A stretch of 64,000 nt of DNA from Chloroflexota bacterium (GTDB lineage: Bacteria; Chloroflexota; Dehalococcoidia; UBA2247; JAUWOP01). Location: the NCBI GenBank assembly GCA_030612045.1, contig JAUWOP010000001.1, forward strand, positions 26,767 to 90,766, read 5' to 3'. The position numbers were made by a program, and so were the translations under genes. Shown one piece after another: positions 5,062 to 62,492 of this stretch. Numbering within the stretch: position 1 is the first letter of the stretch; every line of letters starts with the position of its first letter. The notes below the pieces were generated by a model, which had not been told where the DNA came from, ran no database searches, and saw only the letters and a list, made by a program, of their open reading frames with translations.

Positions 5062-5063
5062 AG

Positions 5064-28692: not shown

Positions 28693-28737
28693 AATCCCCC
28701 TAACCCCCTTTAGAAGAGGGGGAAAGAGGGGGATTAT
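28693..28737. repeat. Family B hairpin element, copy B1 (moxR / membrane-protein spacer)
   Basis: aatccccctaaccccctttagaagagggggaaagagggggatt, a nested inverted repeat. Confidence 0.6.
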
Positions 28738-29709: not shown

Positions 29710-29727
29710 AGTTCACTCCTTCTGGTA

Positions 29728-29769
29728 GTTGTCAGCATTCAGTTATCAGCCATCAGCATCCAGCTTTTG
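29728..29769. repeat. Family D repeat, copy D4 (immediately upstream of the moxR start)
   Basis: gttgtcagcattcagttatcagccatcagcatccagc. Confidence 0.4.
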
Positions 29770-29807
29770 TATAAGTCCTGTAAACATGCGTTTCACTTCC
29801 TGTAAGC

Positions 29808-29917
29808 GTTCACCCCCTTTCATGTCGTTGCGAGGAGCGTGGCGACGAAGCAATCTCTTCCACCCCACCGAGATTGCTTCGCCTTCGGCTCGCAATGACA
29901 CAGGTGAACGGTTACCA
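29808..29917. repeat. Family A element, copy A2, with GTTCACC...GGTGAAC termini
   Basis: gttcaccccctttcatgtcgttgcgag...ctcgcaatgacacaggtgaacggttacc. Confidence 0.7.
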
Positions 29918-30023
29918 CTTCTTTTACTTGACCATCCAATGCCTCATGGGTTTTTATATCCAGGTATCCCAACTCTTGAGACAGAAGTAGATGATATTCG
30001 TAAGTGTTCACCTGCTCCCTATC

Positions 30024-30106
30024 AAATCCCCCTTAGTCCCCCTTTTCTAAAGGGGGAAAAGAATGTAAGCCTCCCCCTTTTCTAAAGGGGGACTAAGGGG
30101 GATTTT
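30024..30106. repeat. Family B composite element, copy B2 (two CCCCCTTTTCTAAAGGGGG hairpins inside an outer inverted repeat)
   Basis: aatcccccttagt-cccccttttctaaaggggg-...-cccccttttctaaaggggg-actaagggggatt. Identical over more than 80 bp to the reverse complement of copy B5 at 52330. Confidence 0.7.
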
Positions 30107-30206
30107 TCTTCTCGGGGAAAGGATAGCGTAGCCTTATATACAGACAGTACCATTCCGTGAGCCTTCTGCCATACTTCCAAGCTTCTAAAATCTCTCATTT
30201 TCAGTT

Positions 30207-30327
30207 GCCGTTCACCCATGTCATTGCGAGCGAAGCGAAGCAATCTCACCCCCCCCACCACCGAGATTAGCTTGCGTCTTCGTCGCTACACTTCTCGCAA
30301 TGACATGAGAGTGGGTGAACACTTACC
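30207..30327. repeat. Family A element, copy A3, flanked by a 13-bp direct repeat attttcagttgcc
   Basis: gttcacccatgtcattgcgagcgaagcgaagcaatctc-acccccccaccacc-gagattagcttgcg...tctcgcaatgacatgagagtgggtgaacacttacc. The direct repeat sits at 30198-30210 and 30328-30340. Confidence 0.65.
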
Positions 30328-30328
30328 A

Positions 30329-30423
30329 TTTTCAGTTGCCAGCTATCTTTTTAGCTTTCAGTTATCAGCTTTCAGCCTCCACGCCCCTGCTGATGGCTGA
30401 ATGCTGATAGCTGACAGCTAAAT
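30329..30423. repeat. Family D repeat cluster, copy D5, running up to the stop of the DUF4350 gene
   Basis: ttcagttgccagctatctttttagctttcagttatcagctttcagcc...gctgatggctgaatgctgatagctgacagct. Confidence 0.45.
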
Positions 30424-31334: not shown

Positions 31335-31428
31335 TCTTCCCTAAGGGGGGGGGAATGGAAGTCCCCCTTCCCTAAAGGAAGATCCCATCAGTCCCCCTTT
31401 TCTAAAGGGGGATTTAGGGGGATTACAA
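31335..31428. repeat. Family B element, copy B3 (contains a G9 tract)
   Basis: ccctaagggggggggaatggaagtcccccttccctaaagg...gtcccccttttctaaagggggatttagggggatt. Confidence 0.55.
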
Positions 31429-31716
31429 ATTCTCATACACTCTTTCGACAGCTCCACTAAGGTTCTCAAACACCTCTCTATCTGAAAACCGCAAGACTTT
31501 CAATCCATGCTCCTTCATATAATCATCCCTAATCTTATCCTTCTTAACCCCCTCATCATTGTAGTGCTGGCTACCATCAATTTCAATAATTAGCTTTGCT
31601 TTTGGACAGTAGAAATCGACTATATAGTTACCTATAATCCTCTGCCTATAAAATTGATACCCTTTCAACTGCTTTCTCCTCACCTTAGACCAAAACAGCC
31701 TTTCTGCATCAGTCAT
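31423..31716 (-). CDS. DUF559 / Vsr-like PD-(D/E)xK endonuclease-domain protein (97 aa)
   Basis: ...YQFYRQRIIGNYIVDFYCPKAKLIIEIDGSQH...LRF matches the D...EIDG DUF559 core. Confidence 0.6.
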   Translation of the reverse strand: MTDAERLFWSKVRRKQLKGYQFYRQRIIGNYIVDFYCPKAKLIIEIDGSQHYNDEGVKKDKIRDDYMKEHGLKVLRFSDREVFENLSGAVERVYENL

Positions 31717-31796
31717 ATTATTTCGTAGTTGTCTTGAGTATTCTTGTAGATTTGTATTGTAAAACAGCGAAATATCTTACTCCTGCAAAGAGGTTC

Positions 31797-31835
31797 TAAT
31801 CCCCCTCTTTCCCCCTTTTCTAAAGGGGGATTACG
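31797..31835. repeat. Family B hairpin, copy B4, 3 nt beyond the stop of the 652-aa gene; possible terminator
   Basis: taatccccctctttcccccttttctaaagggggattacg. Confidence 0.5.
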
Positions 31836-31837: not shown

Positions 31838-33796
31838 CTACGCCAGCCCACTCTTTAGCCCCCTTTGCACCTGCTGAGACAGGTTCTCGGCTCGGGTAAT
31901 CTCCTCATCCCCGGGTGCAACCGCAGAATACAACGCCTTTTCTGCTATTGCTGTCAGTATAGTGAAGTCCTCCTCCACATCTCCTAAACCAGTGCGGCAG
32001 TCTTTCAGAAACTCCCTCATAGTCATATGAGGCTCAAATGCCACACTGCTGACTGCCTCTACTATCTCCACCGCATCATAGTATGCCACCACAGCCCCTC
32101 CCCCTTGGGGTCGTTGTGGGGTTGCATTGCTCGCCTCATCTTTCGCTAACTGCTCTACGGGTGGCGCGACCGTAACTATTTGACCTGGTAGAGATATATC
32201 CACTTGTCCCCTTCTGCGGGTGTACAACACTACACCAATGCATACCAGTGCGACAAAGAGGAATCCGATGTTGATAATATTAGCTACAAAGGTTTTTACC
32301 TCGGTTTGAGTCTGGTCATACCATGGCTCGGCAGGAATGACCGTCACCTCTACAGCCTGATTTCCCATGTAAGTAGGGTCCAGAGGAATATGGAGAACAG
32401 CTCTAAACTCACCATCTTCTCCAGTAATTGTCTCCACTGATTCCCCTCTCAGTGTTAAGGTTACTACGGCACCCGGTACTGGAGCCCCTCCAGAAAGGAC
32501 ACATCCCGTTATCGTAATATCACTGGAGGAGAATACGATATAGGGAGAGCGGACTTCAACCTGGGTCACCATCTTTGTTATCGTTAAGGTTATTTCTTCC
32601 GATACACCAGCATATCGCTGCCAGGAGGCAACAGAGACATTAAGGGTGTGGTCTCCTACGCTTGTATCAGACGGTGGTGTCAATATCAGGGTGAATTGCC
32701 CATCTTCTCCAGTTTTACCCGAAGCCTGAGGTAGAGACCCATCATCAAGGAATACCTCCACTATCCTTCCGTTCAGAGAAGAGCCATCAGAGGTTATTCG
32801 CCCGTTGACACTCATGGGGAATCCCGGGTGTGCTTCCTCCGGAACCGTCAATTCCAGATAGGTGTCGTAGAAACCTATCTGGATAGTTTCCGTAGCAGAA
32901 GTTCCCTGATAGATATCTTTGTCACTATCTGCTGGCGTATACACTGCCCTGACTTCCATTGTGGAGACATACTTGTAGGGGACAGTCAAACTCTTACTGT
33001 ATTTGCCCTCCTCATCAGTTGTCACTGTTCCCTGGAGCGAGTCTACTATGTAGAGGGCTATTACCCTACTACCCAAGGGGCTATTATCCTCACTATCCTT
33101 ATCCTTAAGCATTCCAGAAAGTGTCACCTCATTGCCCACAAATATCTCCTCGGCGGGCACATTAAGACTCAGTTGCGTAGGGGTGAGGTCTGCCTCTTTT
33201 TCTCTCACCTGCTCATCGAGTTGCTCCTGAAGGGATTCATATCGGTCTTTTAGGTCATGCACCTTCTGCACCATACCATCCATATTATCATACGCCTTCT
33301 TCAAAAGACCGGAAGCGGCAGAGGCGAAGACTCCCACCTTTTCACCCAGTGTCCTGGTAGCTGTAGTGAGCTCTGCCAGCAGATTCTCCGCCTCAGTAAT
33401 CTCCGTCCCCACTTCGTCGAGTTTATCCTGAGCCTCACTGAGACGATTCTGGCTAAGAAGGGATGCTGCCTCATCAAGCAGGGTATCTATACTATCCAGT
33501 TTGGCGGAGACATCAGATGTCAGGCTGTTGTAGAGATTGATTATATCCCTCAAATCGTCAGGGATATTAGCTCCATCCAACTGTGCCAGCAGGTTATCAA
33601 CATCAGCAAAGTTTCCTTCAGAGATCAGCCCCATAATCTCACCGTAGTAGTTGAGTAATGAGATAGCACCAAAGGTATCCGTTGCCGTCTCAGGGTCTTC
33701 ATGCGGACTGAAGGGTAACCCCGCCAGCACTGGTGCCCCGGGAAGCAGAGTAGCTATCAGTATAATGAGTAATAAAATGGTGATTAATTTCTTCAT
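31838..33796 (-). CDS. Large secreted protein anchored by one C-terminal TM helix: signal peptide, about 180 aa of coiled coil, three CarboxypepD_reg/Ig-like beta domains, TM, and a cytoplasmic DUF4129-like tail
   Basis: MKKLITILLLIILIATLLPGAPVLAG signal; heptad-rich LxxL region; repeats such as ITITGCVLSGGAPVPGAVVTLTLRGESVETITGEDGEFRAV; TM IINIGFLFVALVCIGVVLY followed by RRRG; tail ...YYDAVEIVEAV...MTMREFLKD...FTILTAIAEKALYS. Confidence 0.55.
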   Translation of the reverse strand: MKKLITILLLIILIATLLPGAPVLAGLPFSPHEDPETATDTFGAISLLNYYGEIMGLISEGNFADVDNLLAQLDGANIPDDLRDIINLYNSLTSDVSAKLDSIDTLLDEAASLLSQNRLSEAQDKLDEVGTEITEAENLLAELTTATRTLGEKVGVFASAASGLLKKAYDNMDGMVQKVHDLKDRYESLQEQLDEQVREKEADLTPTQLSLNVPAEEIFVGNEVTLSGMLKDKDSEDNSPLGSRVIALYIVDSLQGTVTTDEEGKYSKSLTVPYKYVSTMEVRAVYTPADSDKDIYQGTSATETIQIGFYDTYLELTVPEEAHPGFPMSVNGRITSDGSSLNGRIVEVFLDDGSLPQASGKTGEDGQFTLILTPPSDTSVGDHTLNVSVASWQRYAGVSEEITLTITKMVTQVEVRSPYIVFSSSDITITGCVLSGGAPVPGAVVTLTLRGESVETITGEDGEFRAVLHIPLDPTYMGNQAVEVTVIPAEPWYDQTQTEVKTFVANIINIGFLFVALVCIGVVLYTRRRGQVDISLPGQIVTVAPPVEQLAKDEASNATPQRPQGGGAVVAYYDAVEIVEAVSSVAFEPHMTMREFLKDCRTGLGDVEEDFTILTAIAEKALYSAVAPGDEEITRAENLSQQVQRGLKSGLA

Positions 33797-34837: not shown

Positions 34838-34871
34838 CAGGTAGGTTGACCGACGTCGGTCAACCTACCTG
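34838..34871. repeat. Family C palindrome, copy C3 (perfect 34-bp, centre CG, contains GACGTC)
   Basis: caggtaggttgaccgacgtcggtcaacctacctg. Confidence 0.7.
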
Positions 34872-39899: not shown

Positions 39900-39962
39900 A
39901 CTCTCTATCTTACCACTATGCTCTACTTTATCTCTACAGTAACTTGACGATGTTACATTTCC

Positions 39963-40165
39963 ATGTCATTACGAGCATCTGACCCCGCCGCTACGCTGAG
40001 CGGGTTATATCAGAAAGAAGTTTTGAGTTTCTTAGGAGGAGCGTGAGCGACGAAGCAATCTCGGAAACAACAGTAAAGTGGATGGCTATGAGATTAGCTT
40101 GCGTCTTCGCCTTCGGCTCGCAATGACGGGTGGAGTTTCATCACCCGCAACCTAATTTAACATTG
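39963..40165. repeat. Family A long-form composite element, copy A4
   Basis: catgtcattacgagc + module cccgccgctacgctgagcggg...cttaggagga + gcgacgaagcaatctc ... gagattagcttgcgtcttcgccttcggctcgcaatgac + gggtggagtttcatcacccgcaacctaatttaacattg. Same architecture as 52224-52497. Confidence 0.7.
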
Positions 40166-40217
40166 CCAAGGTAAACTTTATCGACCATCTGGCATCGTTT
40201 TAGAATTTAAAAGAATC

Positions 40218-45926: not shown

Positions 45927-47046
45927 CTTTCACAACACCTGTGCCTGATGCATCATCGGCTAGATTTTTGATAATGAGCTCACACATTTCCCTTGTTCCT
46001 ACCTGAGTTTTACCTTGCTCCATTATATCATAGGTGCGGTACCCCTGTTCCAAAACCTTGCTTATAGATTTCTCAATCATTTCTGCTTCTTTTTCCAGAG
46101 TGAAGGAGTAGCGAAGCATCATACCACAACTCAGGATAGTAGCTATAGGATTTACCAGATTCTGTCCTGCCCTCCGAGGAACACTGCCATGAATAGGCTC
46201 ATACATACCAAAGGTTTGCTCACCACTCTGAGGTATCCCTGATAAGCTAGCAGAAGCTAACATTCCCATAGAACCTGCCAGCATTGATGCCTCATCAGTG
46301 AGTATATCACCGAACATATTCTCGGTAACAATAGTATCAAAATAGATTGGCTGTCGAATTAGTCTCATAGCGCAGGCATCTACTAGCATGTGGTCCAGCT
46401 CTACATCAGGATATTCCTCAGCTACTTCAGTAACTACCTTGCGCCACAATCGGGAGGATTCCAGGACATTTGCTTTGTCTACCGAGGTTAATTTCCCGCG
46501 TCGTCTCCTCGCCAGTTCAAACCCTACCCTTACTATGCGCTCAATTTCCTGTTCAGAGTATGCCATAGAGTCTATAGCCCGTCTGCCACGATTAGTACGC
46601 CATTGCCTCTTAGGCCTACCAAAATAGACTCCACCGGTGAGTTCACGTACAAACATGAGGTCTACATCCTTAATAATCTGTGGTTTCAGAGTAGTAGAGT
46701 CAGCCAGCACAGGAAGAACCTTTACAGGGCGGAGATTAGCGAAAAGCCCCAGTTCCTTACGCAGTGCCAGGAGTCCATCCTCAGGACGAACTCTAGCCTC
46801 CGGGTTGTCCCATTTGGGACCACCTACCGCTCCCAGAAGTACAGCATCACTTCCATTACACAATTTCAGGGTTTGGGGGGCGAGAGCCACACCAAACTCA
46901 TCAATTGCCGTTCCACCCACCAAATCATAGTGCAGATTAAATTCATGTCCAGACCTCTTCGCAACTACTTTCAAAACCGCAACTCCAGCGGTGATGACCT
47001 CTGGACCTACACCATCACCCGGCAGAACTGTAATATCAAATCTCAT
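45919..47046 (-). CDS. leuB: 3-isopropylmalate dehydrogenase (beta-decarboxylating dehydrogenase family)
   Basis: [14 protein letters not shown]-terminus and family motifs. Adjacent to leuD. Confidence 0.8.
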
Positions 47047-51041: not shown

Positions 51042-51423
51042 TCTCTCGAATAAACTCTGCTATCTTTCCGATTGAGCTTCCCGGTCCGAAGATACCAGCA
51101 ATACCTTCCTCTTGCAGATGGGGAACGTCTTCAGGGGGGATAATTCCACCACCAATCACCAATACATCATCCCTTTTCTTCTCTTTCAACAATCCCACTA
51201 CCTTGGGGAAAAGATAGCTATGAGCCCCCGAAAGGCAACTCAAACCTACTACATCTACATCCTCTTGAAGGGCAGCCTGCACAATCTTCTCAGGAGATTG
51301 CCGCAATCCTGTATAGATTACCTCAAACCCCTCATCCCTCAAACCAAGCGTTAGAACCTTAGCACCCCGGTCATGTCCATCTAACCCAGGTTTTGCTACC
51401 AGTACCTTTATAAACCTTGCCAT
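51019..51423 (-). CDS. Methylmalonyl-CoA mutase family B12-binding domain subunit
   Basis: [19 protein letters not shown] carries the DxHxxG B12-binding motif. 134 aa. Confidence 0.85.
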
Positions 51424-51621
51424 TCTCTCAAATGCCCCCTTTCAGCAGCATCTTTCATCTCTACACACACATAAGATACCCTCAATTAAGTAAGCTTGTC
51501 AACCATAGGGAATGGGTTGTTAGAAAAAATTCAAAACTGGACTGTCTAAACTTGAAAACTATACTGTGTAAAGGTGAAAAGTGAACTCAGATGATACACT
51601 CCTCCATGGAAGGGGGGATGT

Positions 51622-52095
51622 ATGCAGATACATAAACGGTTCACTGCCGAGCAGGTGAAAGTCTTGCTCAAGGGATACTTGCCAGGGGACATTAGACAGG
51701 TCAGCAATTGGAGAGATCTTAGGGATCAATAAAACCAGATTCTTTGCTCTTCTAACGCAATACCGCCGGGATCCAGATAACCTTTCCCTTACTTACCGGA
51801 GGGCTGCCTCAGCTAGGCTGCCTGCTTCTGTCGAAAGGGAAATTGGGAAGGAATTGATGTTAGACAAGAAGAAAACAGCCTGTTTAGACCTTTTACCTTA
51901 CCCAAGCCATACAGCTCGACTAAGGATGTCTTCTGCTTAAGGGAGAAACGGACGGTCAATGGCTATCGGAGAATATCCCTGTTCAACCACGAAATAGAAG
52001 CGCCAAAAGCGCCACTGCGAGAGGAGGTTGAAGTTCATCTGATTCCTGATGCAGCAAGGGGGGCTTTAGAGATTCCAATATGGCGGGATAACTGA
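51622..52095 (+). pseudogene. Degraded IS481-like transposase remnant (three frameshifted fragments)
   Basis: Frame 1 MQIHKRFTAEQVKVLLKGYLPGDIRQVSNWRDL; frame 2 GINKTRFFALLTQYRRDP...RLPASVEREIGKEL; frame 3 NGYRRISLFNHEIEAP...VEVHLIPD. M-IHK-RFT plus an HTH resembles IS481-family N-termini. No intact ORF. Confidence 0.4.
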
Positions 52096-52223
52096 ATGGT
52101 GCAGTCGGTTACCTGCCCGTTAAAGGAGTTCCCAAGAGTTCACCTTTCAACTTTTCCTAACAGCTTCCGTACTGGAGGTCGTTTATATTGAACGACACAA
52201 TTAAATGTGCATACACTGGAGTT

Positions 52224-52497
52224 GTAACCGTTCACCCTGTGTCATTGCGAGCATCCGACCCGCCGCTGCGCTGGGCGGGTTATATCAGAAAGGAACTCTG
52301 AGTTCCTTAGGAGGAGTGTAGCGATGAGTAATCCCCCTTAGTCCCCCTTTAGAAAAGGGGGAGGCTTACATTCTTTTCCCCCTTTAGAAAAGGGGGACTA
52401 AGGGGGATTTGATGGAGGATGAGATTAGCCTTGCGTCTTCGCTCCGCTCGCAATGACGGGTGGAATTTCATCACCCGCAACCTAATCTAACATTGTC
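52224..52497. repeat. Family A long-form element, copy A6, with a complete family B composite (copy B5, 52330-52410) nested inside
   Basis: gtaaccgttcaccctgtgtcattgcgagc + cccgccgctgcgctgggcggg module + [B5] + gagattagccttgcgtcttcgctccgctcgcaatgac + gggtggaatttcatcacccgcaacctaatctaacattg. Confidence 0.7.
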
Positions 52498-52671
52498 GAG
52501 TTACTAAATGACCTCGAAGTTTCTTGGTTGACACCCAATTTAGGGATAGGATACTATCTATACTGTGGGTAGTTGTTCAAATCTTTGTTACAGAATTTGT
52601 ATAGAGCACAGAGGAAGTTATTACCATTCCTTTGATAAGTCTAGAGTGTTTCAGCGCGAGGAGGGCTGTCT

Positions 52672-52992
52672 ATGCCTACAGAAGTTACAAGCAGCATAGG
52701 AACCATCGAGACTGAGGCTGAGAAGATACTTGTGGAGGCTAGAGCTGAAGTCAGTAAGATTTTGCTTAAAGCTAAAGAGGAGAGCGTCAAGATTCTGTCC
52801 TCTGAATTACCCATGGATGAAACTAAGGTGGAGTGTGAGCATATTATACAGAGTGCGAGAGAAGAAGCTGGTAGAAAAGCTGAAGATTCCAGAGAAAAAG
52901 CCTCCAAAATCAGGGCTGATATTAATAACAGGTTAGAGGGAATTGTGGAGCGTATGGCAGCTATCATCGCTACTGGGGTAGACCCCAGGTGA
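52672..52992 (+). CDS. atpH: A/V-type ATPase subunit H (small coiled-coil subunit)
   Basis: 106-aa charged helical protein at the head of an H-I-K-E-C-F-A-B-D operon. Confidence 0.55.
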   Translation: MPTEVTSSIGTIETEAEKILVEARAEVSKILLKAKEESVKILSSELPMDETKVECEHIIQSAREEAGRKAEDSREKASKIRADINNRLEGIVERMAAIIATGVDPR

Positions 52993-54992
52993 TACCTGTA
53001 TTTATTAACTCCCCTGAACCCATGGCTAAGACCAGGGTAATGACAACGAAGGATTACTCTGAGAAAGCCCTTAAAACCTTGCACAGGCTTGGAGTGCTTC
53101 ATGTCGAGGAGAGTGAAGAGCTAAATCCTGTAGATAGAGCGGCTATTAGCTCCCAGCGGAGGGAAGTTAGCAAGCTATTAGCATGTATGGACAGCGTGCT
53201 GGCTTACATACCGGAGAAGGAAAGGGTGGCTCTGGGAGAGGATATTATAGTAACGTATGTTCGGCCCTTCAGTGAACTCGACAGCGAAGTAGCAGCATTA
53301 TACACCAGACTTACTAACTTGCACCAGGGAATCGTAGGGCACGATGAGGAGCTTAACTGGCTAATAGAACTAAAGAGATATTTTGGTGCTCTCGCCGGAC
53401 AAAGTGATTTTAGGTTAAAGGATTTAAGTTTTTCAGGAGGATACCTTTTCTCCCGGGTCTTTGCGCTTCCCAGCGAGATATATGAAACTTCGCATGATAA
53501 GATTAAGGGTTACCTGCTGGTAAGTAATACCGCCACTGTGGAAAATGAGACTGTTCTCTATGTAATTGCCAGGACTAAAGACCAGAAGATTGTAGAGTCT
53601 CTAGTTACAGATACCGCAGGTAAAATCCTCAAGGTACCAGATGAAGATTTAACACTGAGAGAATTTCTGGGAGCAGTTGATGGTAAGATTCACGACCTTG
53701 AAGAAGAACTGTCAAGACTCCATGCGGAGCTCCAGAGTAAGACTAGAGAGAACCTGGAGAGAATTGCCCTTCTAAGAGAAACATTGCTAGCAGAGAACGA
53801 GAGGCTCTCAGTCCTGGAGAAAGCCTGCGAAGCAAAGTATGTAACATTAGTTGAAGGATGGATTCCGGAGAGTAATGTTGAATCTGCCATTTCTGAACTT
53901 AAAGAAAATATAGGCTATGTGTTTGTTGACATCAGAGAGCCAGAACAAGCAGAGGAGCCTCCTACCAGGCTGAGGAACCCATCAGGATTTAAGCCATTCC
54001 AGAGTGTGGTAGACCTCTTCGGTACTCCTAAATACCGAGAGTGGGACCCAACACCGATAGTAGCCTACTCCTTCGCTATCTTCTTTGGTCTCATGGCAGC
54101 CGATGTGGTTTATGCTATCGGCATTATACTGGGCACAAGATTTCTTCTAGGCAAATTCGTTGATGACCCTGAAACCGATGGCTTTAAGCTATTTCAGAAA
54201 TTGCTTTATACCTGTGGTGGGGTTGCCCTGGTTTTTGGCTTGCTTACCGGAAATTACCTGGGGGATATGCCTAGTAAGTTTTTTGGAGTTGAATCACTGG
54301 CACTTGTAGAAGGGGTCCAACAAATGTTAGGAGACCCTCTGAAGTTTATTGTGCTCTCATTAGTGCTGGGTTTTATCCACGTAAACATAGCTCATCTGCT
54401 GGGGTTTATCAGGGGAGTAAGGGAAAAGGGAGTAGCGCCTGGTAAGATTGGGCTGTTTGCGCTTCAAATTGGTGGGATACCCTGGGTCATACACAACCTG
54501 CTTGGCATTGACATCCCGTTGCTGAGTACCTTAGCATACAGCATTCTTCTGTACCTTGTAGTGGTGGGCGTAATCTTGGTTATTGTTTCTTCTGTTATGC
54601 AGAAGGGTGCTTTCCTAGGAGGTATTTTCTGGATATTTGATATAACCGGGATACTAGGTGATATTATGTCTTATTGTAGAATAGCCGGGGTAGGTTTAGC
54701 TACATTTTATCTGGCATTCTGTTTCAATCTGATAGCAGACTTGATAGGAGGTGCTATCTCAGGGATAATACCCGGGGTAGTAGGGATTGTAATCAGCATC
54801 ATTGTAATGGTGGTCATATTGCTTGTTCTCCATGCCCTTAATCTATTTCTCACTGGTCTGGCGTCCTTTATACATTCACTCAGGTTATGCTTTGTAGAGT
54901 TCATGTTCAAGTTCTTTGAAGGAGGGGGCAGGGAGTATAGCCCATTTCGGCTAAGTACCAGGACATCGGTGTTGGTTAAGGGAGGAGCATGA
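52989..54992 (+). CDS. atpI: A/V-type ATPase subunit I (membrane a-subunit)
   Basis: 667 aa with a soluble N-terminal half and a C-terminal multi-TM domain. Position in operon. Confidence 0.8.
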   Translation: MIPVFINSPEPMAKTRVMTTKDYSEKALKTLHRLGVLHVEESEELNPVDRAAISSQRREVSKLLACMDSVLAYIPEKERVALGEDIIVTYVRPFSELDSEVAALYTRLTNLHQGIVGHDEELNWLIELKRYFGALAGQSDFRLKDLSFSGGYLFSRVFALPSEIYETSHDKIKGYLLVSNTATVENETVLYVIARTKDQKIVESLVTDTAGKILKVPDEDLTLREFLGAVDGKIHDLEEELSRLHAELQSKTRENLERIALLRETLLAENERLSVLEKACEAKYVTLVEGWIPESNVESAISELKENIGYVFVDIREPEQAEEPPTRLRNPSGFKPFQSVVDLFGTPKYREWDPTPIVAYSFAIFFGLMAADVVYAIGIILGTRFLLGKFVDDPETDGFKLFQKLLYTCGGVALVFGLLTGNYLGDMPSKFFGVESLALVEGVQQMLGDPLKFIVLSLVLGFIHVNIAHLLGFIRGVREKGVAPGKIGLFALQIGGIPWVIHNLLGIDIPLLSTLAYSILLYLVVVGVILVIVSSVMQKGAFLGGIFWIFDITGILGDIMSYCRIAGVGLATFYLAFCFNLIADLIGGAISGIIPGVVGIVISIIVMVVILLVLHALNLFLTGLASFIHSLRLCFVEFMFKFFEGGGREYSPFRLSTRTSVLVKGGA

Positions 54993-55008
54993 AGGTGAGG
55001 AGTAAAAG

Positions 55009-55491
55009 GTGCTGATTGACCCATCTTCTCTGGCTACATTGGGTGGGGGAGTAGCGCTAGGCGGCGGACTACTAGGTGCATCAATAGGTATAGCCATTGC
55101 TGCTTCTGCTGGGACAGCCACATTGTCTCAGGATCGCTCACAGCTCAGGAATGTAGTTATATTGGCAGCTTTACCAATGTCCCGATCTTTTTATGGGATC
55201 ATCCTGCTAATAATTATCCTCACAGTAGTAGTTCCTAAGTTAGATGCAATGTCAGGGGGTGGGGGGGGTAATGGCTTCGCTGTATTTGCCTGTGGTATCG
55301 GGGCAGCTTTGGCTCTAGGTGTCTCAGGAGCATACCAGGGCTCTGTATGTGCTGCAGGCATTTCATACTTACCTAAGACAAAGGGACGAATACTGGCTAA
55401 TGCTGTAATGTTAGCTGTGTTTGTTGAACTTATAGCTGTATTGGGGCTGGTGTTTACTATACTAGCGCTGAGTATGCTGAATCTTATGTAG
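55009..55491 (+). CDS. atpK: A/V-type ATPase proteolipid subunit K (4-TM, duplicated hairpin), copy 1; contains a G5-T-G8 tract
   Basis: Gly-rich TM helices, conserved Glu in VFVELIAVLGL. The G8 run at 55261-55268 encodes SGGGGGNG. Confidence 0.8.
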   Translation: MLIDPSSLATLGGGVALGGGLLGASIGIAIAASAGTATLSQDRSQLRNVVILAALPMSRSFYGIILLIIILTVVVPKLDAMSGGGGGNGFAVFACGIGAALALGVSGAYQGSVCAAGISYLPKTKGRILANAVMLAVFVELIAVLGLVFTILALSMLNLM

Positions 55492-55548
55492 AAAAGAGGG
55501 CTAAACTGTAGCCACCATAAGTAATCATACAATGAAGGGAGGCATGAA

Positions 55549-56028
55549 ATGGTAATTGACCCAGGGTCCTTGGCAGTTCTTGGAGGTGCTATAGCACTAG
55601 GTGGAGGCTTGGCAGGTTCATCAATAGGGATAGCCAGGGCCGGAGTTAATGGAGTAGCTACGCTGGCTGAAGAGCCGGGGCAACTCAGGAATGTTATTGT
55701 TCTGGCATCTCTACCAATGACACAAACCTTTTATGGACTTATAGTGCTGATACTTATTCTAACCACAGTAAAAGGTAATGTGGAGGCACCAGAGGCTTGG
55801 GCTGGGGCGGGTTTTGCTATATTTGCCTGTGGGATTATAGCTGCCTGTGCGGAATGCTTCTCCGGAGCATATCAGGGCTCCGTGTGTGCTTCAGGTATCG
55901 CAATGTTAACTAAAACGAAGGGAGCGATACTCACTAATGCCATGATGCTAGCAGTCTTTGTGGAATTAATAGGTGTACTAGGACTGGTATTCACCATACT
56001 GGCAGTAAGTATGCTAGGTCTCATGTAA
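55549..56028 (+). CDS. atpK: A/V-type ATPase proteolipid subunit K, copy 2 (tandem paralog)
   Basis: Same architecture; VFVELIGVLGL. Confidence 0.8.
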   Translation: MVIDPGSLAVLGGAIALGGGLAGSSIGIARAGVNGVATLAEEPGQLRNVIVLASLPMTQTFYGLIVLILILTTVKGNVEAPEAWAGAGFAIFACGIIAACAECFSGAYQGSVCASGIAMLTKTKGAILTNAMMLAVFVELIGVLGLVFTILAVSMLGLM

Positions 56029-56038
56029 GGAGTGCCAC

Positions 56039-56632
56039 ATGAATGGAATGGAGAAGATAAGCGAGGCTATCCTAGAGAAGGTGAAAGGGGATGCCCGGAA
56101 TATAGTAGCTGATGCTGAGGAAAAGGCACGTCAGGAAATAGAGAAAGCCAAAAAGCAGAGAGAGAAAAGACTTGAAGAAGAGGAGCATAAGCTAGTACGG
56201 GAAGCTAAAGAGGAGGCTGCTCGAATTCTGGCTCAAGCCTCTATAGCAGCCCGCCAGGAGTTGGTAAGGGCTAAGACTGACATGATTGATAAGGTAATTG
56301 ACAGAGTAAGAAGTGTTCTGTCAGAAACCTCAAGCAATGCAGCTACGCTACTTAGCCTGGCTCAGGAGGCTTATGATGCCCTCGGTGTCGACAAGGTCAG
56401 GGTCTATGTCGCCACCAGGGATATAGATACGACACGAAGAGCCATAGGAACGAACAAAGAGCTAGCTGAGAAGATAGTAGATATTAGAGAGTTCGACTGT
56501 GTAGGGGGATTGATAGTAGAGAGTCTCGATGGGAAAATGAGGATAGATAATACCTACGGGGCTAGGCTTGAGATATTATTACCCAAGATTCTGCCTGAGG
56601 TAAGTAATGACCTCTTTAGCCAAATCAGGTAG
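56039..56632 (+). CDS. atpE: A/V-type ATPase subunit E
   Basis: Charged helical N-terminus with a C-terminal globular part. 197 aa. Operon position. Confidence 0.65.
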   Translation: MNGMEKISEAILEKVKGDARNIVADAEEKARQEIEKAKKQREKRLEEEEHKLVREAKEEAARILAQASIAARQELVRAKTDMIDKVIDRVRSVLSETSSNAATLLSLAQEAYDALGVDKVRVYVATRDIDTTRRAIGTNKELAEKIVDIREFDCVGGLIVESLDGKMRIDNTYGARLEILLPKILPEVSNDLFSQIR

Positions 56633-56707
56633 GTAACAGATAGACACAGAGTTAGAGATAGAGAAGGTAGAGTAGTCTCTGCCTCTATCTTAATTCTCTA
56701 TCTGGAA

Positions 56708-57763
56708 GTGTGGGAGTTCATTTTGCTTGATCCAAGTAATGCATTTATATCAGCATACCTGAAAGGCGAAGAATCCAAGCTGATAACTCTTGAACATATA
56801 GATAAGATGTTATCAGCATCCAGCATCCGGGATATATTAGAAATCATCAAAGGGAGCGATATTGGGGATTACCTTCAAGGAGTCCCTATTAACACCTTTG
56901 ATGATATTGATGCATGTCTGTGGAAGTACTTGCTGAGTTGCATCGAGCATATAGAATCGTTCAACCTCCTGCCAGATGACATACGGCGGATATTGAGGGC
57001 ATACCTAGTAAAATATGATATCTCGAATGTCAAGGCTGCTTTGTGGGGTATCTCGAGCGGCAAAAAGGCCCGCATGATGCCGCTGGGTGCCATTCAGAGT
57101 TATGGAATGCTGGACAGACTCTCTCATGTTGAAAACATAGATGGCATCATTGAACTACTTACTGAATGTAGATTGGGAGATTATGCACCTATCTTGAAGG
57201 AATACGAGATAGAGGGGGAGATAAGGTCAAGGCTCATGGTTGAAGCCAGATTAGATAGTGAGTACTACAAGAACATGTTAGGCATGGCAAATGACACACA
57301 GGATGGTTTTATCCTGGCGAAAGCCTTTGGTGTTATTATAGACCTAACAAACCTGCAAATTACATCGAGAGCTATAATTGAGGGTATAGGGACTGAAGTA
57401 GCTGAATGTACCATTAGCGGTGGGTATATAATATCAGAGAAAACTATCAGGGAGCTGCTACCGCTTACACTAGCTGATATACCTCATAGATTAGAGAATA
57501 CTCCATACCATGAGGTAGCACGGGAATTATCAGATAGCTATGATAGGACTAAGAGTATTACTAGTATAGAGGAAACTATCGACAAATATGAGTTTAGATT
57601 ACTCAAGGGGGTATTATCAACATGGGTGCTATCCCCTTTAGTAGTAGCATGGTATCTGATACTCAAAGAGAATGAAATACGAAACCTAAGGCTAGTTATA
57701 AAGATGATATTTGATAGTATCCCCCTAAGTGAAATAAAGGACTATCTGGTACTTTCATCATGA
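56708..57763 (+). CDS. atpC: A/V-type ATPase subunit C
   Basis: 351 aa. Operon position between E and F. Confidence 0.6.
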   Translation: MWEFILLDPSNAFISAYLKGEESKLITLEHIDKMLSASSIRDILEIIKGSDIGDYLQGVPINTFDDIDACLWKYLLSCIEHIESFNLLPDDIRRILRAYLVKYDISNVKAALWGISSGKKARMMPLGAIQSYGMLDRLSHVENIDGIIELLTECRLGDYAPILKEYEIEGEIRSRLMVEARLDSEYYKNMLGMANDTQDGFILAKAFGVIIDLTNLQITSRAIIEGIGTEVAECTISGGYIISEKTIRELLPLTLADIPHRLENTPYHEVARELSDSYDRTKSITSIEETIDKYEFRLLKGVLSTWVLSPLVVAWYLILKENEIRNLRLVIKMIFDSIPLSEIKDYLVLSS

Positions 57764-58113
57764 TGCCTATTAGACAACTGGGTATAGCTGTTATAGGAGA
57801 TAAAGACCTGGTTAATGGATTAAGGCTAATTGGTGTTAGTAGATATTATATGATAGAAGATAGCCACAATGCCTCTGAGGATGTCAGAGAGGCTCTAGGA
57901 GAACTGATAGGTGACCCTGGTATCGGTGTAGTAATAATATTAGAAGAGTATGCCAAACATGTTGAGGATTTAATAATCCAGCTTAGAGGGGGAAAGAGGT
58001 TTGTACCAGTAATTGTTGAAGTCCCGCCAAGGGGTGGTACAACCTATGGGGATGTGGGAGAATATTACAAGGAGTTTATCAAGAGATTCCTTGGCTTTGA
58101 GATAGAGATTTAG
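57760..58113 (+). CDS. atpF: A/V-type ATPase subunit F
   Basis: 117 aa, ...IAVIGDKDLVNGLRLIGV... is typical of subunit F. Confidence 0.7.
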   Translation: MMPIRQLGIAVIGDKDLVNGLRLIGVSRYYMIEDSHNASEDVREALGELIGDPGIGVVIILEEYAKHVEDLIIQLRGGKRFVPVIVEVPPRGGTTYGDVGEYYKEFIKRFLGFEIEI

Positions 58114-58120
58114 ATAGATG

Positions 58121-58170
58121 AGGCTAAAGGTTGAAGGTCTCCTTCAGTCTTCAGCCTAGCTATCTTTTGT
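58121..58170. repeat. GGYTGAAGG hairpin element related to 37317 and to family D (agctatctttt)
   Basis: gaggctaaaggttgaagg-tct-ccttcagtcttcagcctagctatcttttg, in the gap between atpF and atpA. Confidence 0.4.
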
Positions 58171-58185
58171 TGTGGAGGCATTGAA

Positions 58186-59937
58186 ATGGGGAAGATACGG
58201 AGGGTTTCAGGCCCGCTGGTCATCGGTGAAGAGATGGAGGGCGCCCAGATTTATGAGCTTGTTGAAATAGGTAAGGAGGGGCTGGTAGGAGAGGTTATTG
58301 GGCTGGAGGGAGATAATGTAATAATTCAGGCACATGAAGATACTTTAGGACTGGAGGTGGGTGAAGAGGTCAGGGGGACAGGGAGCATTTTATCCGTAGA
58401 GTTAGGCCCCGGAATAGTGGGAGCTATCTATGACGGGTTACAGAAATCCTTGACTGATTTGATGAAGGATAGCTCGTTCATAAAACGAGGAGTGAAATCA
58501 CCGGCATTACCTCGAGATAAGAAGTGGAGCTTCACACCCAAAATTAAGGTAGGAGATACGGTCAACGAAGGGGATATAATAGGCACAGTTCCTGAGACCG
58601 AGCTTGTCGAGCACAGAATAATGGTGCCACCAGGAGTTAAGGGAGTAGTAGAGAAGATAGGTGAGGGCAATTATACTGTTGAAGAACCGATAGTATGGCT
58701 GAAGGGTGATAGGGAGACAAAAGAGCTTACCATGGTACAAAGATGGCCTGTAAGGAAACCTCGTCCCTATAAAGGAAGGCTTGCTCCTTCAGGGCTGCTA
58801 GTTACCGGAATGCGGATTATGGATTACCTGTTTCCCCTAGCTTTGGGTGGTAAGGCAGCAATACCAGGAGGTTTCGGTACTGGTAAGACCGTTGCACTAC
58901 AGCAGCTTGCCAGGTGGTCTCAGACACAACTTAACATCTATGTGGGGTGCGGCGAAAGAGGCAACGAGATGTCCGATGTGCTCTATAGCTTCAGAAAGCT
59001 TAAGGACCCCGCTACAGGCAGGTTACTGCAGGAGAAAGAGATATTCCTGGCTAATACCTCTAATATGCCTGTGGTAGCCCGTGAAGCAAGCATCTTTGTC
59101 GGTATCACCCTGGCTGAGTATTTTAGGGACATGGGTTACGATGTGCTGATGGTGGCAGATTCAACCTCAAGATGGGCTGAAGCTATGAGAGAGATTGGTG
59201 GCAGACTGGAAGAGATGCCTGGTGAGGAGGGTTTTCCTGCATATATGGGTTCACGACTTGCCTCATTTTATGAGAGGGCAGGGGTGGTGGAATGCCTCGG
59301 TGCACCTGAGAGGAAGGGGTCAATAACACTGGTTGGTGCGGTAAGCCCTCCCGGAGCTGATTTCAGTGAGCCGGTAACTCAGAATACACTCAGGATAGTA
59401 GATGCATTGTACTCCCTGGATGTTTCACTGGCGAATAAGAGACATTTCCCCACCATAAGCTGGCTTACCAGCTACAGTCTTTACGTAGATGCGGTGAGAG
59501 ATTGGTGGAACCAGATTGATTCAGGGTGGGAAAATCTGAGAGCTAACGCACTGAGTATTCTACAGCAGGAAGCTGAGCTTGAGGAAATTGTAAGGCTGGT
59601 GGGTCCTGAGGCACTGCCTGAAAGGGACAAGCTATTATTACTGGCAGCAAGAATGATACGCGAGGATTTCCTCCAGCAGAGTGCTTACCATGAAGTTGAT
59701 ACCTATTCTGAACCTTCCAGGGCTAATCTTATGATGAAGACCATAAGCAAGTTTTATGAGCTGACTCAAGCAATGCTAGATTCTGGAGTGAGTGTAGCAG
59801 ATGTTCGTTCTTCTCCTATAGTGTATAAAATATCACGCATGAAGGATATACCCCATGAGGACTTCGAGCAGAGAATCAAGGAGCTGTGGTTGGAGATGGA
59901 GTCTAGCTTGGTGCCTCAGAAAGGAGGGGTCTTATGA
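58186..59937 (+). CDS. atpA: A/V-type ATPase catalytic subunit A (no intein)
   Basis: GPFGSGKT-type P-loop (GGFGTGKTV), 583 aa. Confidence 0.9.
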
Positions 59938-61352
59938 ATTTCTCTCCCCTTTATGTAAAGGAATCTAGGGCAATTAACAGTGCTAAGGGCTCTCTGCTCG
60001 TAGCAGAGAGTATCCCAGGGATAAAGCTTGGGGAAATGGTTGATATCATACTCCGAAATAAGGATGTGAGAGCAGCCCAGGCAATAGACATTAGTAAAGA
60101 AACGGCTGTATTTCAGGTATTTGGTGGGGTAAGTGAGGTAGACCTTACGGGGAGTAAGATAAGATGCAGAGGAGAGTCCTTAAAACTAGCAGTATCCATT
60201 GACATCCTGGGGAGGATATTTAATGGATTGGGAGAACCTATAGATGGAGGTTCCCCCACGGTTGCCGAAGACTATCGGGATATTGGTGGTGCCCCTATGA
60301 ATCCTGCATCTCGTGAGCCCCCGTCTGAGTTTATTGAGACTGGCATATCAGCTATAGACGGGCTAAATGCTCTGGTAAGGGGGCAGAAGCTGCCCATATT
60401 CAGTGGCTCAGGTTTACCACATAATCGAATTATAGCTCAAATAGTTAGACAGGCTACTATAAAGGGCAAAGAGGAGGGATTTGCCATAGTATTCGCCGCT
60501 GTTGGTGTGAGCTACAACGATGCTGCTTTTTTTATGCGGAACCTTGAAGAGACAGGAGCGCTGGAAAGGTCTGTAGCATTTATCAATATAGCGTCAGACC
60601 CCGTAATAGAGCGTATTTCAACACCAAGGCTGGCATTAACTGCTGCCGATTACCTGGCACTGGAACACCATATGCATGTACTGGTGATAATTAGCGACAT
60701 GACCAGCTATTGTGAAGCTCTCCGTGAGCTTTCCGCTACACGGGAGGAGATACCCTCAAGAAGAGGATACCCCGGATACATGTATACTGACCTTGCTACA
60801 ATGTATGAGAGGGCTGGCAGAATATTCGGGCAAGAAGGCTCAGTGACTATAATGCCCATTCTGACCATGCCTGATGATGACATAACACACCCTATTCCTG
60901 ACCTCACTGGTTACATAACCGAAGGACAAATTGTGCTCTCCAGAGAGCTAGAAAGAAAGGGCGTATATCCCCCTATAAATGTCTTCTTGTCTCTGTCCCG
61001 AATGATGAAAGAGGGAATCGGAGCAGGTAAAACCAGGGAGGACCATAATAATGTCTTCATGCAGCTGTATGCTGCCTATGCTGAAGGATGCTATCTCAGG
61101 GAGATATCAACCATCATAGGCGCCGAGGCATTGAGTGAGAGAGATAAATTATACCTGACGATTGCAGACAGGTTCGAGAGGGAATTTATCTCTCAGGGTG
61201 AGCGTGAAAAGAGGTCAGTGGAGGAAACTCTCGATATAGGATGGAGGCTATTCTCATCTCTGCCCGAGGGAGACTTGAAGCTGATTAGCGAGGGCTATAT
61301 TCAGAAATACCTTCCAAAACATAGGGAAGAAGGGGTTTTAGTTCCTGATTAA
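59934..61352 (+). CDS. atpB: A/V-type ATPase subunit B
   Basis: 472 aa non-catalytic B subunit; ...[12 protein letters not shown]... Confidence 0.9.
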
Positions 61353-61363
61353 AGGCGAAGTAA

Positions 61364-61993
61364 ATGGCACAACCGTTCAAAGTTAGACCGACAAAGATTG
61401 AGTTAGTGAACCTGAAGCGCAGGCTTGCATTATCTTCGAGAGTACAGAAGATAATAAAGGATAGACTTTCCATACTAACTCTGGAATTTTTGCAGACGGC
61501 AAGAGAGACTGTAGAAGCCAAGAGGAGATTGCTTAGCAATTTCGCTGAGGTCTATAGAGCATTATCAATTACCGTAGGGTATCATGGGTATATAGCCTTG
61601 GAAAAGGAATTGATAGCCTCCGAGAGAGATTTGGGAGTTGCTGCTGGCTCAAGAAGTGTGGCAGGAGTGAGAACTCCTTCCTTTGAGCTAATGAGTCACA
61701 ATGGAGTAGGACGAGGATATAATTTAGTTGATACCTCTTCATGGGTAGACCAAACGGCACAATTATCTGAAAAATGTCTTGAGGCTATTGTCGAGTTAGC
61801 TGAGTCCCAGAGGAATCTGGAGCTACTCGGAATGGAGATAAGCAGGACAAAAAGAATCTCTAACGCCCTGGAATATATAGTAATTCCCGGCTTGCAAGCA
61901 ACGATAAAGTACCTGGAGCAGAAGTTTGAGGAGAGGGATAGAGAAGAGAAAACACGATTAAAACGTGTGAAGATACTACTCCAGCAAAGATAA
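61364..61993 (+). CDS. atpD: A/V-type ATPase subunit D
   Basis: MAQPFKVRPTKIELVNLKRRL is the typical D-subunit N-terminus. Confidence 0.8.
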   Translation: MAQPFKVRPTKIELVNLKRRLALSSRVQKIIKDRLSILTLEFLQTARETVEAKRRLLSNFAEVYRALSITVGYHGYIALEKELIASERDLGVAAGSRSVAGVRTPSFELMSHNGVGRGYNLVDTSSWVDQTAQLSEKCLEAIVELAESQRNLELLGMEISRTKRISNALEYIVIPGLQATIKYLEQKFEERDREEKTRLKRVKILLQQR

Positions 61994-62063
61994 CTAGAGA
62001 TAGCGGTAGAGAGGGGACAACTGGTCTCTGTCTCTATCACAAACCCCCATCTGACGTTGAAAT

Positions 62064-62492
62064 ATGTTACCTTATGAGAAAGCACTTCAGGAATATCTGA
62101 GGGATGAGCTTAGGGTAGTAAATGCTCATCTTCCCAGCCACCAAAAATCGTTATCAGCCTTGCTCCAGGAGGATTATCCTCATGTAAGATGCCAGGATGG
62201 TAATGTTTACCTCTTCAAGAAGAAGGAGTTGGAATATCTTGCCAGCCTGGTAGATGCCGCAGAGCAGGAAGCACTATCACTTCCTATACTTATAGAATCG
62301 GGTTCAAATCAAGGTGAAGTAGCAATAATATGCAGGGGAGAGGTGGAGGAGAAGGTTATTTCCCATATTCTTGATATGCCTGTTACGAGCCAAAAAGGAA
62401 AAATTGTGATATATAGACCACAGCTAGCCTTACTAAGGAAGACATTAAAAACCACAACCCAGTATGTGTTTTCCCCCGCAATCCTCAAATAA
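62064..62492 (+). CDS. DUF61/UPF0216-like protein (family otherwise typical of archaea)
   Basis: ...ELRVVNAHLPSHQKSLSALLQEDYPHV...LPILIE...IVIYRPQLALLRKTLKTTTQYVF resembles UPF0216 motifs. Confidence 0.45.
   Translation: MLPYEKALQEYLRDELRVVNAHLPSHQKSLSALLQEDYPHVRCQDGNVYLFKKKELEYLASLVDAAEQEALSLPILIESGSNQGEVAIICRGEVEEKVISHILDMPVTSQKGKIVIYRPQLALLRKTLKTTTQYVFSPAILK

Follow-up and report, generated by a model that had tools for sequence, protein, structure and literature searches.

Dispersed hairpin repeats are common, and most of them have no known source. Examples are the repetitive extragenic palindromes (REPs), the small dispersed repeats (SDRs) of cyanobacteria, the small noncoding repeats (SNRs) of Deinococcus and many unnamed families that show up as junk open reading frames in metagenome-assembled genomes (MAGs). 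One such family can now be tied to a nuclease gene. It is found in a stretch of 64,000 nucleotides from a Chloroflexota bacterium of the class Dehalococcoidia (assembly GCA_030612045.1, contig JAUWOP010000001.1, positions 26,767 to 90,766), here called the window. A repeat termed family B sits there in the hairpin tip of a larger repeat, family A. The same module brackets a small DUF559 gene, which codes for a Vsr-like PD-(D/E)XK endonuclease.

REPs, together with the bacterial interspersed mosaic elements (BIMEs) and the REP doublets forming hairpins (REPINs), are short extragenic palindromes arranged in mosaics, as is family B, whose composite form is a doublet folding into a 31-bp interrupted hairpin (PMC3116915). 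Unlike the REPs that belong to REP-associated tyrosine transposases (RAYTs), family B starts with (A/T)AATCCCCC and has no GTAG/CGTC tag (PMC3733652), and no RAYT gene turned up among about 58 ORFs of the window scanned with Pfam. REPs are species-specific, whereas the sequence of family B is kept across phyla. Its gene encodes a Vsr-like nuclease rather than a Y1 transposase.

Nesting of one repeat in another is known from cyanobacterial SDRs. SDR4-6 are very small, hairpin-capable repeats that insert precisely in other repeats, such as SDR5 in HIP1 (PMC5861425, PMC4390886). They are reported only from Nostocaceae (PMC5861425). Their units measure 21-27 nt, and they are not known to encode a transposase. 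The nesting is alike, but family B differs in its 43-80 nt units and its Chloroflexota host; the two are set apart here by their descriptions, not by their sequences.

Miniature inverted-repeat transposable elements (MITEs), such as Nezha, Correia/NEMIS and ERIC, offer another comparison. Like them, family B is non-coding, shorter than 300 bp, structured and intergenic, has terminal inverted repeats and shares its ends with a larger, gene-carrying element. Unlike them, it lacks a target-site duplication, and what its gene-carrying partner encodes is a nuclease, of a family (DUF559) that is not known to act as a transposase.

Pfam places DUF559 together with Vsr in the PD-(D/E)XK superfamily, and the Vsr fold also serves homing endonucleases (PMC3424549, PMC9403480). 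The Vsr-type clan includes proven homing endonucleases in the EDxHD family, with I-Bth0305I (PMC3239194). Vsr-like homing endonuclease genes are small, selfish and patchily spread across lineages, as the DUF559 cassette appears to be; the documented tie between the two is one of fold. In contrast to such genes, the DUF559 gene is free-standing, intergenic and bracketed by hairpins, and it lies in no intron or intein.

Finally, Deinococcus radiodurans carries SNRs and oligo-G repeats, which are mosaic, modular, intergenic repeats with G-runs (PMC1978522). Two DUF559 genes on Deinococcus plasmids have G/C-run hairpin ends of about 56 nt, a likeness that is no more than suggestive.

A family B composite within a family A hairpin

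Family A consists of layered palindromes, of which the window holds five to six copies. An outer shell, GTAA(G/C)(Y)GTTCACC ... GGTGAAC(R)(S)TTAC, surrounds the core arms GTCATTGCGAG ... CTCGCAATGAC, the inner arms ..GAAGCAATCTC ... GAGATT(A)GC.. (also written ..GCAATCTC/GAGATTAGC..) and a small loop, aYrCCCCRCC. Two copies are long forms (39965-40165 and 52224-52495), which add a 68-nt module of two hairpins between the core and inner left arms and a 38-nt extension on the right. These additions occur in no A copy beyond those two, either in the window or in the loci collected for comparison.

Family B is built of three parts: X = AATCCCCC, the hairpin H = CCCCCTTT-nnn-AAAGGGGG (seen as CCCCCTTT-TCT-AAAGGGGG) and X' = GGGGGATT. 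A composite contains two hairpins and reads AATCCCCC-TTAGT-CCCCCTTT(AGA)AAAGGGGG-16 nt-CCCCCTTT(AGA)AAAGGGGG-ACTAA-GGGGGATT. The parts of the nested element and its counterparts in the window are the following.

52224-52236, plus strand: left end of the family A outer shell, GTAACCGTTCACC; at 29806, 30210 and 49674 the A copies are bordered by this motif too, or by its complement, GGTGAAC(G/A)(G/C)TTAC.
52241-52251, plus strand: left arm of the family A core, GTCATTGCGAG, which pairs with 52447-52457 in the DNA fold.
52252-52319, plus strand: long-form module with two hairpins (GACCCGCC..GGCGGGT and GGAACTC-T-GAGTTCC), 87% identical to 39976-40050.
52320-52329, plus strand: remnant of the A left inner arm, AGCGATGAGT (GCGACGAAGCAATC in the copy at 39963), from alignment and direct reading.
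52330-52409, unstranded: family B composite, nested copy, identical to the other copy as far as 52413, from reading, script comparison and fold.
52410-52446, plus strand: what is left of the loop of A, TGATGGAGGAT, followed by its right inner arm, GAGATTAGCCTTGCGTCTTCGCTCCG, 95% complementary to 25501-25539.
52447-52495, plus strand: right arm of the A core, CTCGCAATGAC, and right extension hairpin of the long form, GGGTGGAATTTCATCACCC..., 96% over 49 nt to 40117-40165.
39965-40165, plus strand: family A long form without B (the copy at 39963), with the loop GGAAACAACAGTAAAGTGGATGGCTAT at 40063-40089, from reading, alignment and fold.
30025-30104, unstranded: family B composite, second copy, inverted, with exact identity over 30021-30104, from reading, script comparison and fold.
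30000-30012, plus strand: orphan end of a family A shell, GTAAGTGTTCACC, 12 nt from the second B composite.

The nesting of one repeat in the other is real. A first-pass annotation of the window, made from its letters alone, had described the nested block as the exact reverse complement of a second copy, and both direct reading and a script comparison bear this out over 84 of 84 nt (52330-52413 against 30021-30104), with the ranges given there 2-3 nt off at the ends. With flanks included, a repeat finder reports the pair as 91 nt at 97%. The architecture is also as that annotation had it: an outer inverted repeat, AATCCCCCTTAGT / ACTAAGGGGGATT, encloses two CCCCCTTT-(TCT/AGA)-AAAGGGGG hairpins that stand 16 nt apart.

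As single-stranded DNA, the composite does not form two small hairpins but a single long interrupted one. The stem has 22 bp and then 9 bp, with a 3x3 internal loop in between, and ends in a 14-nt loop. Folding yields -33.1 kcal/mol, with z = -7.5 relative to dinucleotide shuffles. In the fold of the whole element, 52224-52497, the A arms are paired and the B composite stands at the apex (-68.8 kcal/mol, z = -8.8). The seat of the composite is the apical loop of the long-form palindrome 52224-52495.

The alignment of the two long forms (39940-40200 against 52200-52530), which had been proposed as a check, finds them co-linear on both sides of B and the block missing from the copy at 39963. Both forms have 'GCGA(C/T)GA' to the left of B and '(G)GATGG..ATGAGATTAGC' to its right. 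The left joint lies inside an AATC that both partners have, A in its inner arm (GAAGCAATC|TC) and B in its outer arm (GAGTAATC|CCCC), and the right joint just before (G)GATGG. B does stand where its sister copy has a loop, but the replaced segment is roughly TCGGAAACAACAGTAAAG(TG), which is 18-27 nt depending on how the shared AATC is assigned and narrower than the 41 nt first claimed.

There is no target duplication at either composite. Read in the same orientation, the nested copy has the flanks GAGT|..|TGAT and the other copy GAAA|..|TGAT. With no target duplication, part of the loop gone and the joint in the AATC microhomology, the change is a replacement. The claim that one element inserted into another therefore stands as to B lying within A and being missing from the sister copy, but not as to the signature of a clean insertion. 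With that correction, the nested reading is largely right.

The timing follows from the relative divergence of the two families. Identity between the A long forms is 87% on one side of B and 92% on the other, against 100% between the B composites. If the composites were as similar as the A sequence around them (roughly 90%), a run of 84 matches would have p ~1e-4 by simple arithmetic, which excludes chance. B was thus acquired, or homogenised, after the A copies had diverged by 8-13%. Recent mobility had been deduced from the identity alone; a later arrival of B fits the diverged hosts, with later homogenisation as the alternative.

The second composite had been called 'free'. It does lie 22 kb away, with A short forms on either side, but it adjoins an orphan A outer end, CAGGTGAACACTTAC, at 9-11 nt. 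Its surroundings are a 713-nt spacer crowded with heptamer repeats and two A short forms. The heptamer tandem repeats (CAGTTAT / CAGCCAT / ATAGCTG) bracket this A-B-A cluster at 29726-29762 and 30346-30420, and similar ones occur at 26372-26405, 18464-18495, 14518-14560 and 1780-1813. Identical inverted B copies 22 kb apart are also potential substrates for an inversion.

Two further observations concern the nested element. One hairpin of the long-form module differs between the copies (GGAACTC-T-GAGTTCC at 52289-52307 against GAAGTTT-TG-AGTTTC at 40014-40032), with AGGAGG directly after it, and its pairing is kept in both only if G-U pairs on the plus strand are allowed; these differences, seen in two copies, hint at structure at the RNA level. 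Directly left of the element, at about 51620-52100, a frameshifted and internally deleted remnant resembling an integrase or transposase can be made out by eye, with a helix-turn-helix-like N-terminus ('...AIGEILGINKTRFFALL...') and the C-terminus '...RISLFNHEIEAPKAPLREEVEVHLIPD...'.

Family B modules are the ends of a DUF559 cassette

The family B module is the terminal inverted repeat of a DUF559 cassette that is found in many phyla. The cassette is about 0.45 kb long and has the order H-N-X' .. DUF559 ORF .. X-N-H, where ORF stands for open reading frame. The resident example spans 31393-31832 and has three parts.

31798-31832, minus strand: left terminal repeat, on the gene strand AATCCCCCTTTAGAAAAGGGGG-AAAGA-GGGGGATT, at the same position as in 58/67 relatives.
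31423-31776, minus strand: gene of the DUF559 family (Vsr-like PD-(D/E)XK endonuclease, Pfam PF04480); its ATG-started ORF is 31423-31716, 97 aa.
31393-31424, minus strand: right terminal repeat, on the gene strand (TGT)AATCCCCC-TAAAT-CCCCCTTTAGAAAAGGGGG, at the same position as in 57/71 relatives.

The ORF 31423-31716 matches PF04480 with E = 7e-31 and 106.8 bits (cutoff 20.6), and it matches PDB 3hrl, a solved Neisseria 'endonuclease-like protein', with E = 1.2e-17. Against NCBIfam PRK09767/YcjD it reaches 67 bits, under the equivalog cutoff of 218, and is thus a member of the DUF559 family rather than an ortholog of YcjD. The conserved N-terminal frame, LFYNTNLQEYSRQLRNN, runs on to about 31776 without a canonical start codon. 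Between the left repeat and the called ATG there are 81 nt, the last 60 of them in this conserved frame. On the other side, the stop codon TAA overlaps the AATCCCCC of the right repeat, and degenerate hairpins continue beyond that repeat as far as 31335.

A scan of metagenome contigs for DUF559 relatives yields 80 loci with 63-84% amino-acid identity, 71 of them distinct. The left end, H-N-GGGGATT, is present in 58 of the 67 evaluable relatives and ends 54-90 nt before the Met of the conserved 'MTDAE', and therefore only 0-30 nt ahead of where these genes really begin. The right end, AATCCCC-N-H, is present in 57 of 71 and starts 1-12 nt after the stop codon. Both ends occur together in 49 of 67 relatives, and several of the apparent negatives are degenerate variants that the strict pattern misses. 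The background of the two motifs in the same loci is 12 + 12 per 193 kb of strand. Between the resident cassette and five others, DNA homology begins at the left hairpin and ends at the right hairpin, with unrelated sequence beyond them.

Two classes of right end can be told apart, AATCCCCC/CCCCCTTT/AAAGGGGG and AATCTCCCC/CCCCTCTTT/AAAGAGGGG, the latter with matching GGGGAGATT left ends. The second class makes up 14 of 44 distinct right ends, and in all 14 each of the four G/C runs takes part in compensating the T/A insertion, which means that pairing has been maintained.

Similar ends are found on far more distant genes. Thirteen DUF559 genes of 35-47% identity, taken from annotated plasmid or chromid records, were inspected for flanking repeats. 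Six of them lie between inverted repeats of high significance, and each time the repeats contain a G/C-run hairpin with a sequence of its own. In Deinococcus psychrotolerans the repeats are 56 nt long at 98%, and the cassette lies between paaD and paaZ. In Pseudanabaena ABRG5-3, composite X-H-spacer-H-X' units stand on both sides of the ORF. The other four are from D. proteolyticus, P. galeata, Sinorhizobium meliloti and Sphingomonas parapaucimobilis, and the flanking repeats in Picosynechococcus and Synechocystis are borderline. The G/C-run hairpins next to the Pseudanabaena and Picosynechococcus genes presumably resemble SDRs.

In agreement with such ends, 'DUF559 domain-containing protein' is enriched (odds ratio 14) among genes that are flanked by inverted repeats and predicted to be inversion targets (PMC9881135). 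In the literature searched, neither a hairpin-flanked cassette nor a link to dispersed repeats is described for DUF559, YcjD or Vsr-like genes; absence there is not proof of novelty, but the link between gene and repeat is apparently undescribed. Full-text searches for the repeat sequences returned chance matches only.

Family B is also widespread without the gene. The exact 19-mer CCCCCTTTTCTAAAGGGGG is present in at least 119 species-representative genome stretches, where chance alone predicts about 4 occurrences over the two strands of 596 Gb (arithmetic). By record titles, the MAGs among the matches listed are labelled as at least 11 phyla, a count that could be inflated by mis-binning; several matches lie on contigs of 0.1-2.6 Mb. 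The matches listed include Thermodesulfobacteriota (Syntrophales, Desulfobacterales), Nitrospirota, Nitrospinota, anammox Planctomycetota (Jettenia, Scalindua), Beta- and Gammaproteobacteria (Pseudomonadota), Chloroflexota (Dehalococcoidia), Atribacterota, Aminicenantes/Acidobacteriota, Omnitrophota and Deferribacterales, and none is cyanobacterial. The 19-mer also occurs in 42 IMG/VR stretches. DUF559 relatives in IMG/VR amount to three weak loci, and a phage vehicle is thus not supported. The exact spacer of the composite and the long-form A end were found neither in IMG/VR nor in any collected locus.

The outer arms recur in most of the listed matches, as (A)AATCCCCC-N4-5-hairpin-N3-5-GGGGGGATT. 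Three architectures can be distinguished among the genome loci listed: the simple X-H-X' (19 cases), the composite X-H-spacer-H-X' of the window, with spacers of 9-25 nt (11 cases), and H-X'-spacer-X-H, with spacers mostly of 15 nt (26 cases). Apart from the resident gene, DUF559 matches appear in only two of the 161 loci listed that were selected by the 19-mer (one partial, at a locus end), with B hairpins 10-90 nt upstream.

A recurrent ORF-less arrangement, hairpin-GGGGGGATTA-(A/T)ATAAGCGCTTAAT-AATCCCCC-hairpin, has a palindromic spacer of about 15 nt and occurs in MAGs labelled 'delta proteobacterium', Syntrophobacterales and 'Proteobacteria' (loci L011-L013, L038, L042, L049, L056, L061, L063, L076, L084, L094, L095, L097 and L105). 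It could be an empty or deleted cassette. Tandem arrays of three to four B hairpins, repeating every 40-60 nt or so, are seen in L098 (4745-4930), L159 (6097-6197), L172 and the flanks of L165; the array of L159 lies directly upstream of a DUF559 gene.

Within the window, one further unit stands apart from the cassette and the composites.

28693-28735, unstranded: simple B unit, AATCCCCC-TAA-CCCCCTTTAGAAGAGGGGG-AAAGA-GGGGGATT, in a 66-nt spacer between the gene of a MoxR-like ATPase (28759-29709) and the co-oriented ORF 28168-28692.

This unit abuts the start codon of the downstream ORF 28168-28692 and is 97% complementary over 33 nt to the left end of the cassette (31797-31829), the AAAGA linker included. 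The simpler B hairpins noted in the first-pass annotation do exist, at 28693-28735, 31393-31424 and 31798-31832, but the last two turn out to be the terminal repeats of the DUF559 cassette.

Possible histories of the nested element

A moderately probable history, drawn from these sequence comparisons, is that the ORF-less B units come from the DUF559 cassette family and that one was copied into the tip of an A hairpin after the A copies had diverged. The simple unit at 28693, as well as the composites at 30025 and 52330 with their order of right end, spacer, left end, would then be non-autonomous or solo-end derivatives of the cassette. Some time after the A long forms diverged, a B composite would have been copied into the A hairpin tip. 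The event would start where the hairpin tip is extruded, with a break for which the DUF559 nuclease may be responsible. Another B copy would serve as the template for repair, with the joint formed via the AATC/GATT microhomology of the A inner and B outer arms. Such a break-and-copy event would leave no target duplication and would cost about 20 nt of the loop. We infer from sequence that the Vsr-like nuclease may be what mobilises the repeats.

Other loci have comparable joints. In a Desulfobacterales MAG (L002), a B doublet sits in the loop of a different palindrome, of the GTCATT...AATGAC type. In Jettenia (L032), an A right arm comes after a B unit, and two IMG/VR stretches (L136, L148) have an A right arm joined straight to the left half of B, at GGGGG|AGATTGC. 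Nesting or fusion of A and B at AATC/GATT is thus recurrent.

Several points weigh against the break-and-copy history. The dispersed units have the order X-H-X', opposite to the H-X'..X-H of the cassette, and no mechanism explains the change. In the dispersed order a right end meets a left end, the way it would at a circle junction or where two cassettes lie in tandem; such composites directly abut the ORF in L173, L181, L237 and Pseudanabaena. The gene is found in just 3 of the roughly 160 B-selected loci listed, and B could equally be a preferred target of the cassette and not its derivative. Five of the thirteen distant DUF559 genes, those of E. coli, Neisseria, Azospirillum, Photobacterium and Methylobacterium, have no significant flanking repeats. 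The resident DUF559 gene, with no canonical start for its conserved N-terminus, may be inactive. There are only two A long forms, and loss of B from the copy at 39963 is formally possible. Finally, among 42 complete B units from other genomes there is not one with complementary flanks of at least 8 bp. This rules out the idea that B units generally sit at the tips of larger palindromes, and nesting in A is thus occasional, not the rule.

Rather than being moved by the nuclease, B could be an ordinary REP- or MITE-like repeat that is moved in trans by a transposase encoded elsewhere (of the RAYT/IS200-IS605 or DDE type), with DUF559 as a passenger or as a gene that lands by or between B units. 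The composite folds like a REPIN-type doublet, the missing target duplication fits single-strand Y1 transposition, most of the B loci listed have no DUF559 and the view is limited to 64 kb of the genome. On the other hand, about 58 ORFs of the window scanned with Pfam contain no Y1_Tnp or other transposase domain, and B has no GTAG/CGTC tag of the RAYT-associated REPs (PMC3733652). The ORF and its ends evidently travel together, given the overlap of stop codon and repeat, the fixed distance of the left repeat in most relatives and the homology that ends at the hairpins. Distant DUF559 genes have hairpin ends that have diverged along with them. Mobilisation by a transposase is considered unlikely.

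A history without any transposition is less likely still. The ancestral A long form may have contained B, which the copy at 39963 then lost, or gene conversion may keep the inverted B copies identical. The change is a replacement and not a clean insertion, and palindrome tips are prone to deletion. The 'free' copy, which abuts a fragment of an A shell, could be a decayed A+B element. Against a loss, the 27-nt loop of the copy at 39963 holds no remnant of B, and the short A copies, both here and in other phyla, have the conserved small loop aYrCCCCRCC with no B in it. B is also dispersed in unrelated contexts and phyla.

It is very improbable that the B hairpins are selected RNA or DNA signals, such as terminators, stabilisers of mRNA or protein-binding sites, which would owe their spread to function and happen to be nested here. 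All B units are intergenic and strongly structured, compensated variants preserve their stems, and units are found just past stop codons and just before start codons. The first-pass annotation had likened the hairpin at 31797-31835 to a terminator lying 3 nt past a stop codon. It is actually 5 nt from the stop codon of the ORF 31838-33796, a scan for stems with T-tracts calls no terminator at any B unit, and the unit at 28693 is directly upstream of a start codon. No Rfam family is matched by B at the gathering score: the only such matches in the window are two tRNAs, and 51400-52700 gives only sub-threshold hairpins of miRNA type, also with E-value thresholds. A signal would not account for 84/84 identity within another repeat.

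That the assembler made or misplaced one B copy is hardly credible: although the window comes from a SPAdes-type metagenome contig and independent Logan contigs of the same population break in the repeat region (L164 ends at 51645 and L246 starts at 52428, in the A right arm), both B copies have unique and coherent gene contexts, an independent contig is identical over 3306/3306 nt up to the A arm, and the same architecture recurs in many unrelated assemblies.

More broadly, and only tentatively, hairpin-bracketed DUF559 genes may be a widespread, minimal and hitherto undescribed kind of mobile cassette, able to do without a transposase. From its ORF-less ends, dispersed repeats would arise in many phyla, family B among them and possibly those like the cyanobacterial SDRs and the G-run repeats of Deinococcus and rhizobia, and the units would nest by break-and-copy at hairpin tips. 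If the nuclease does drive the spread, this would explain how repeats multiply without a transposase partner and why DUF559 genes are patchy and multi-copy. The plasmids of Deinococcus or Pseudanabaena would offer a system in which this can be tested. There is also a practical side, in that hairpin repeats fragment metagenome assemblies and yield spurious ORFs.

Other repeats and genes of the window

Besides the long forms, the window has short copies of family A, among them the following three.

29806-29914, plus strand: short form with shell, loop TTCCACCCCACC, from repeat analysis.
30210-30326, plus strand: short form, with a perfect 14-nt direct repeat, CATTTTCAGTTGCC, on either side (30196-30209 and 30327-30340).
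25478-25585, plus strand: short form with a duplicated left arm, from repeat analysis.

The first of these is flanked by CACTTC(C/T)T at 29798-29805 and 29915-29922. The direct repeats around the short forms look like target-site duplications, which suggests that this family may belong to the conventional MITEs. No ORF partner of it came to light in the collected loci, where arm pairs 548-1377 nt apart proved to be separate neighbouring elements. A tblastn search of these loci with E. coli YhbQ, a GIY-YIG protein, gave no match.

A third repeat family in the window is a near-perfect palindrome of 30 nt, GGTAGGTTGACCGAYRTCGGTCAACCTACC, found between genes at 14913-14942, 28354-28383 and 34840-34869, with a degenerate copy at 46799-46828. 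There is also a 54-nt inverted pair at 85% (6712-6765 and 25410-25463), with the palindromic core GGTGGGCAGCCGCCCA / GGGTAGCTGCCCACC. A very similar sequence, 'tggtgggcagtgcccaccctac', adjoins a B unit in a Scalindua rubra locus (L039) and may be another repeat family that crosses phyla.

The window has a G+C content of 46.8% and no HIP1 site. A cyanobacterial origin, which the style of the repeats might suggest, is rejected on the missing HIP1 site, on the 19-mer matches and on MeaB, whose closest relatives apart from the protein itself reach 68% identity at most and, where named, come from Chloroflexi/Dehalococcoidia MAGs. Pfam identifies ordinary chromosomal genes, among them dnaN, clpB, dnaJ, mutL, ispG, ispH, leuS, rnc and a V/A-type ATPase operon. 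Some of the content is unusual for a contig from bacteria (4150-5900, 9646-10740 and 52989-62492), with two PAC2-family genes, a class V fructose-1,6-bisphosphatase (FBPase_3), DUF61 and the V/A-type ATPase operon itself, which is complete and has tandem c-subunit paralogues at 55009-56028.

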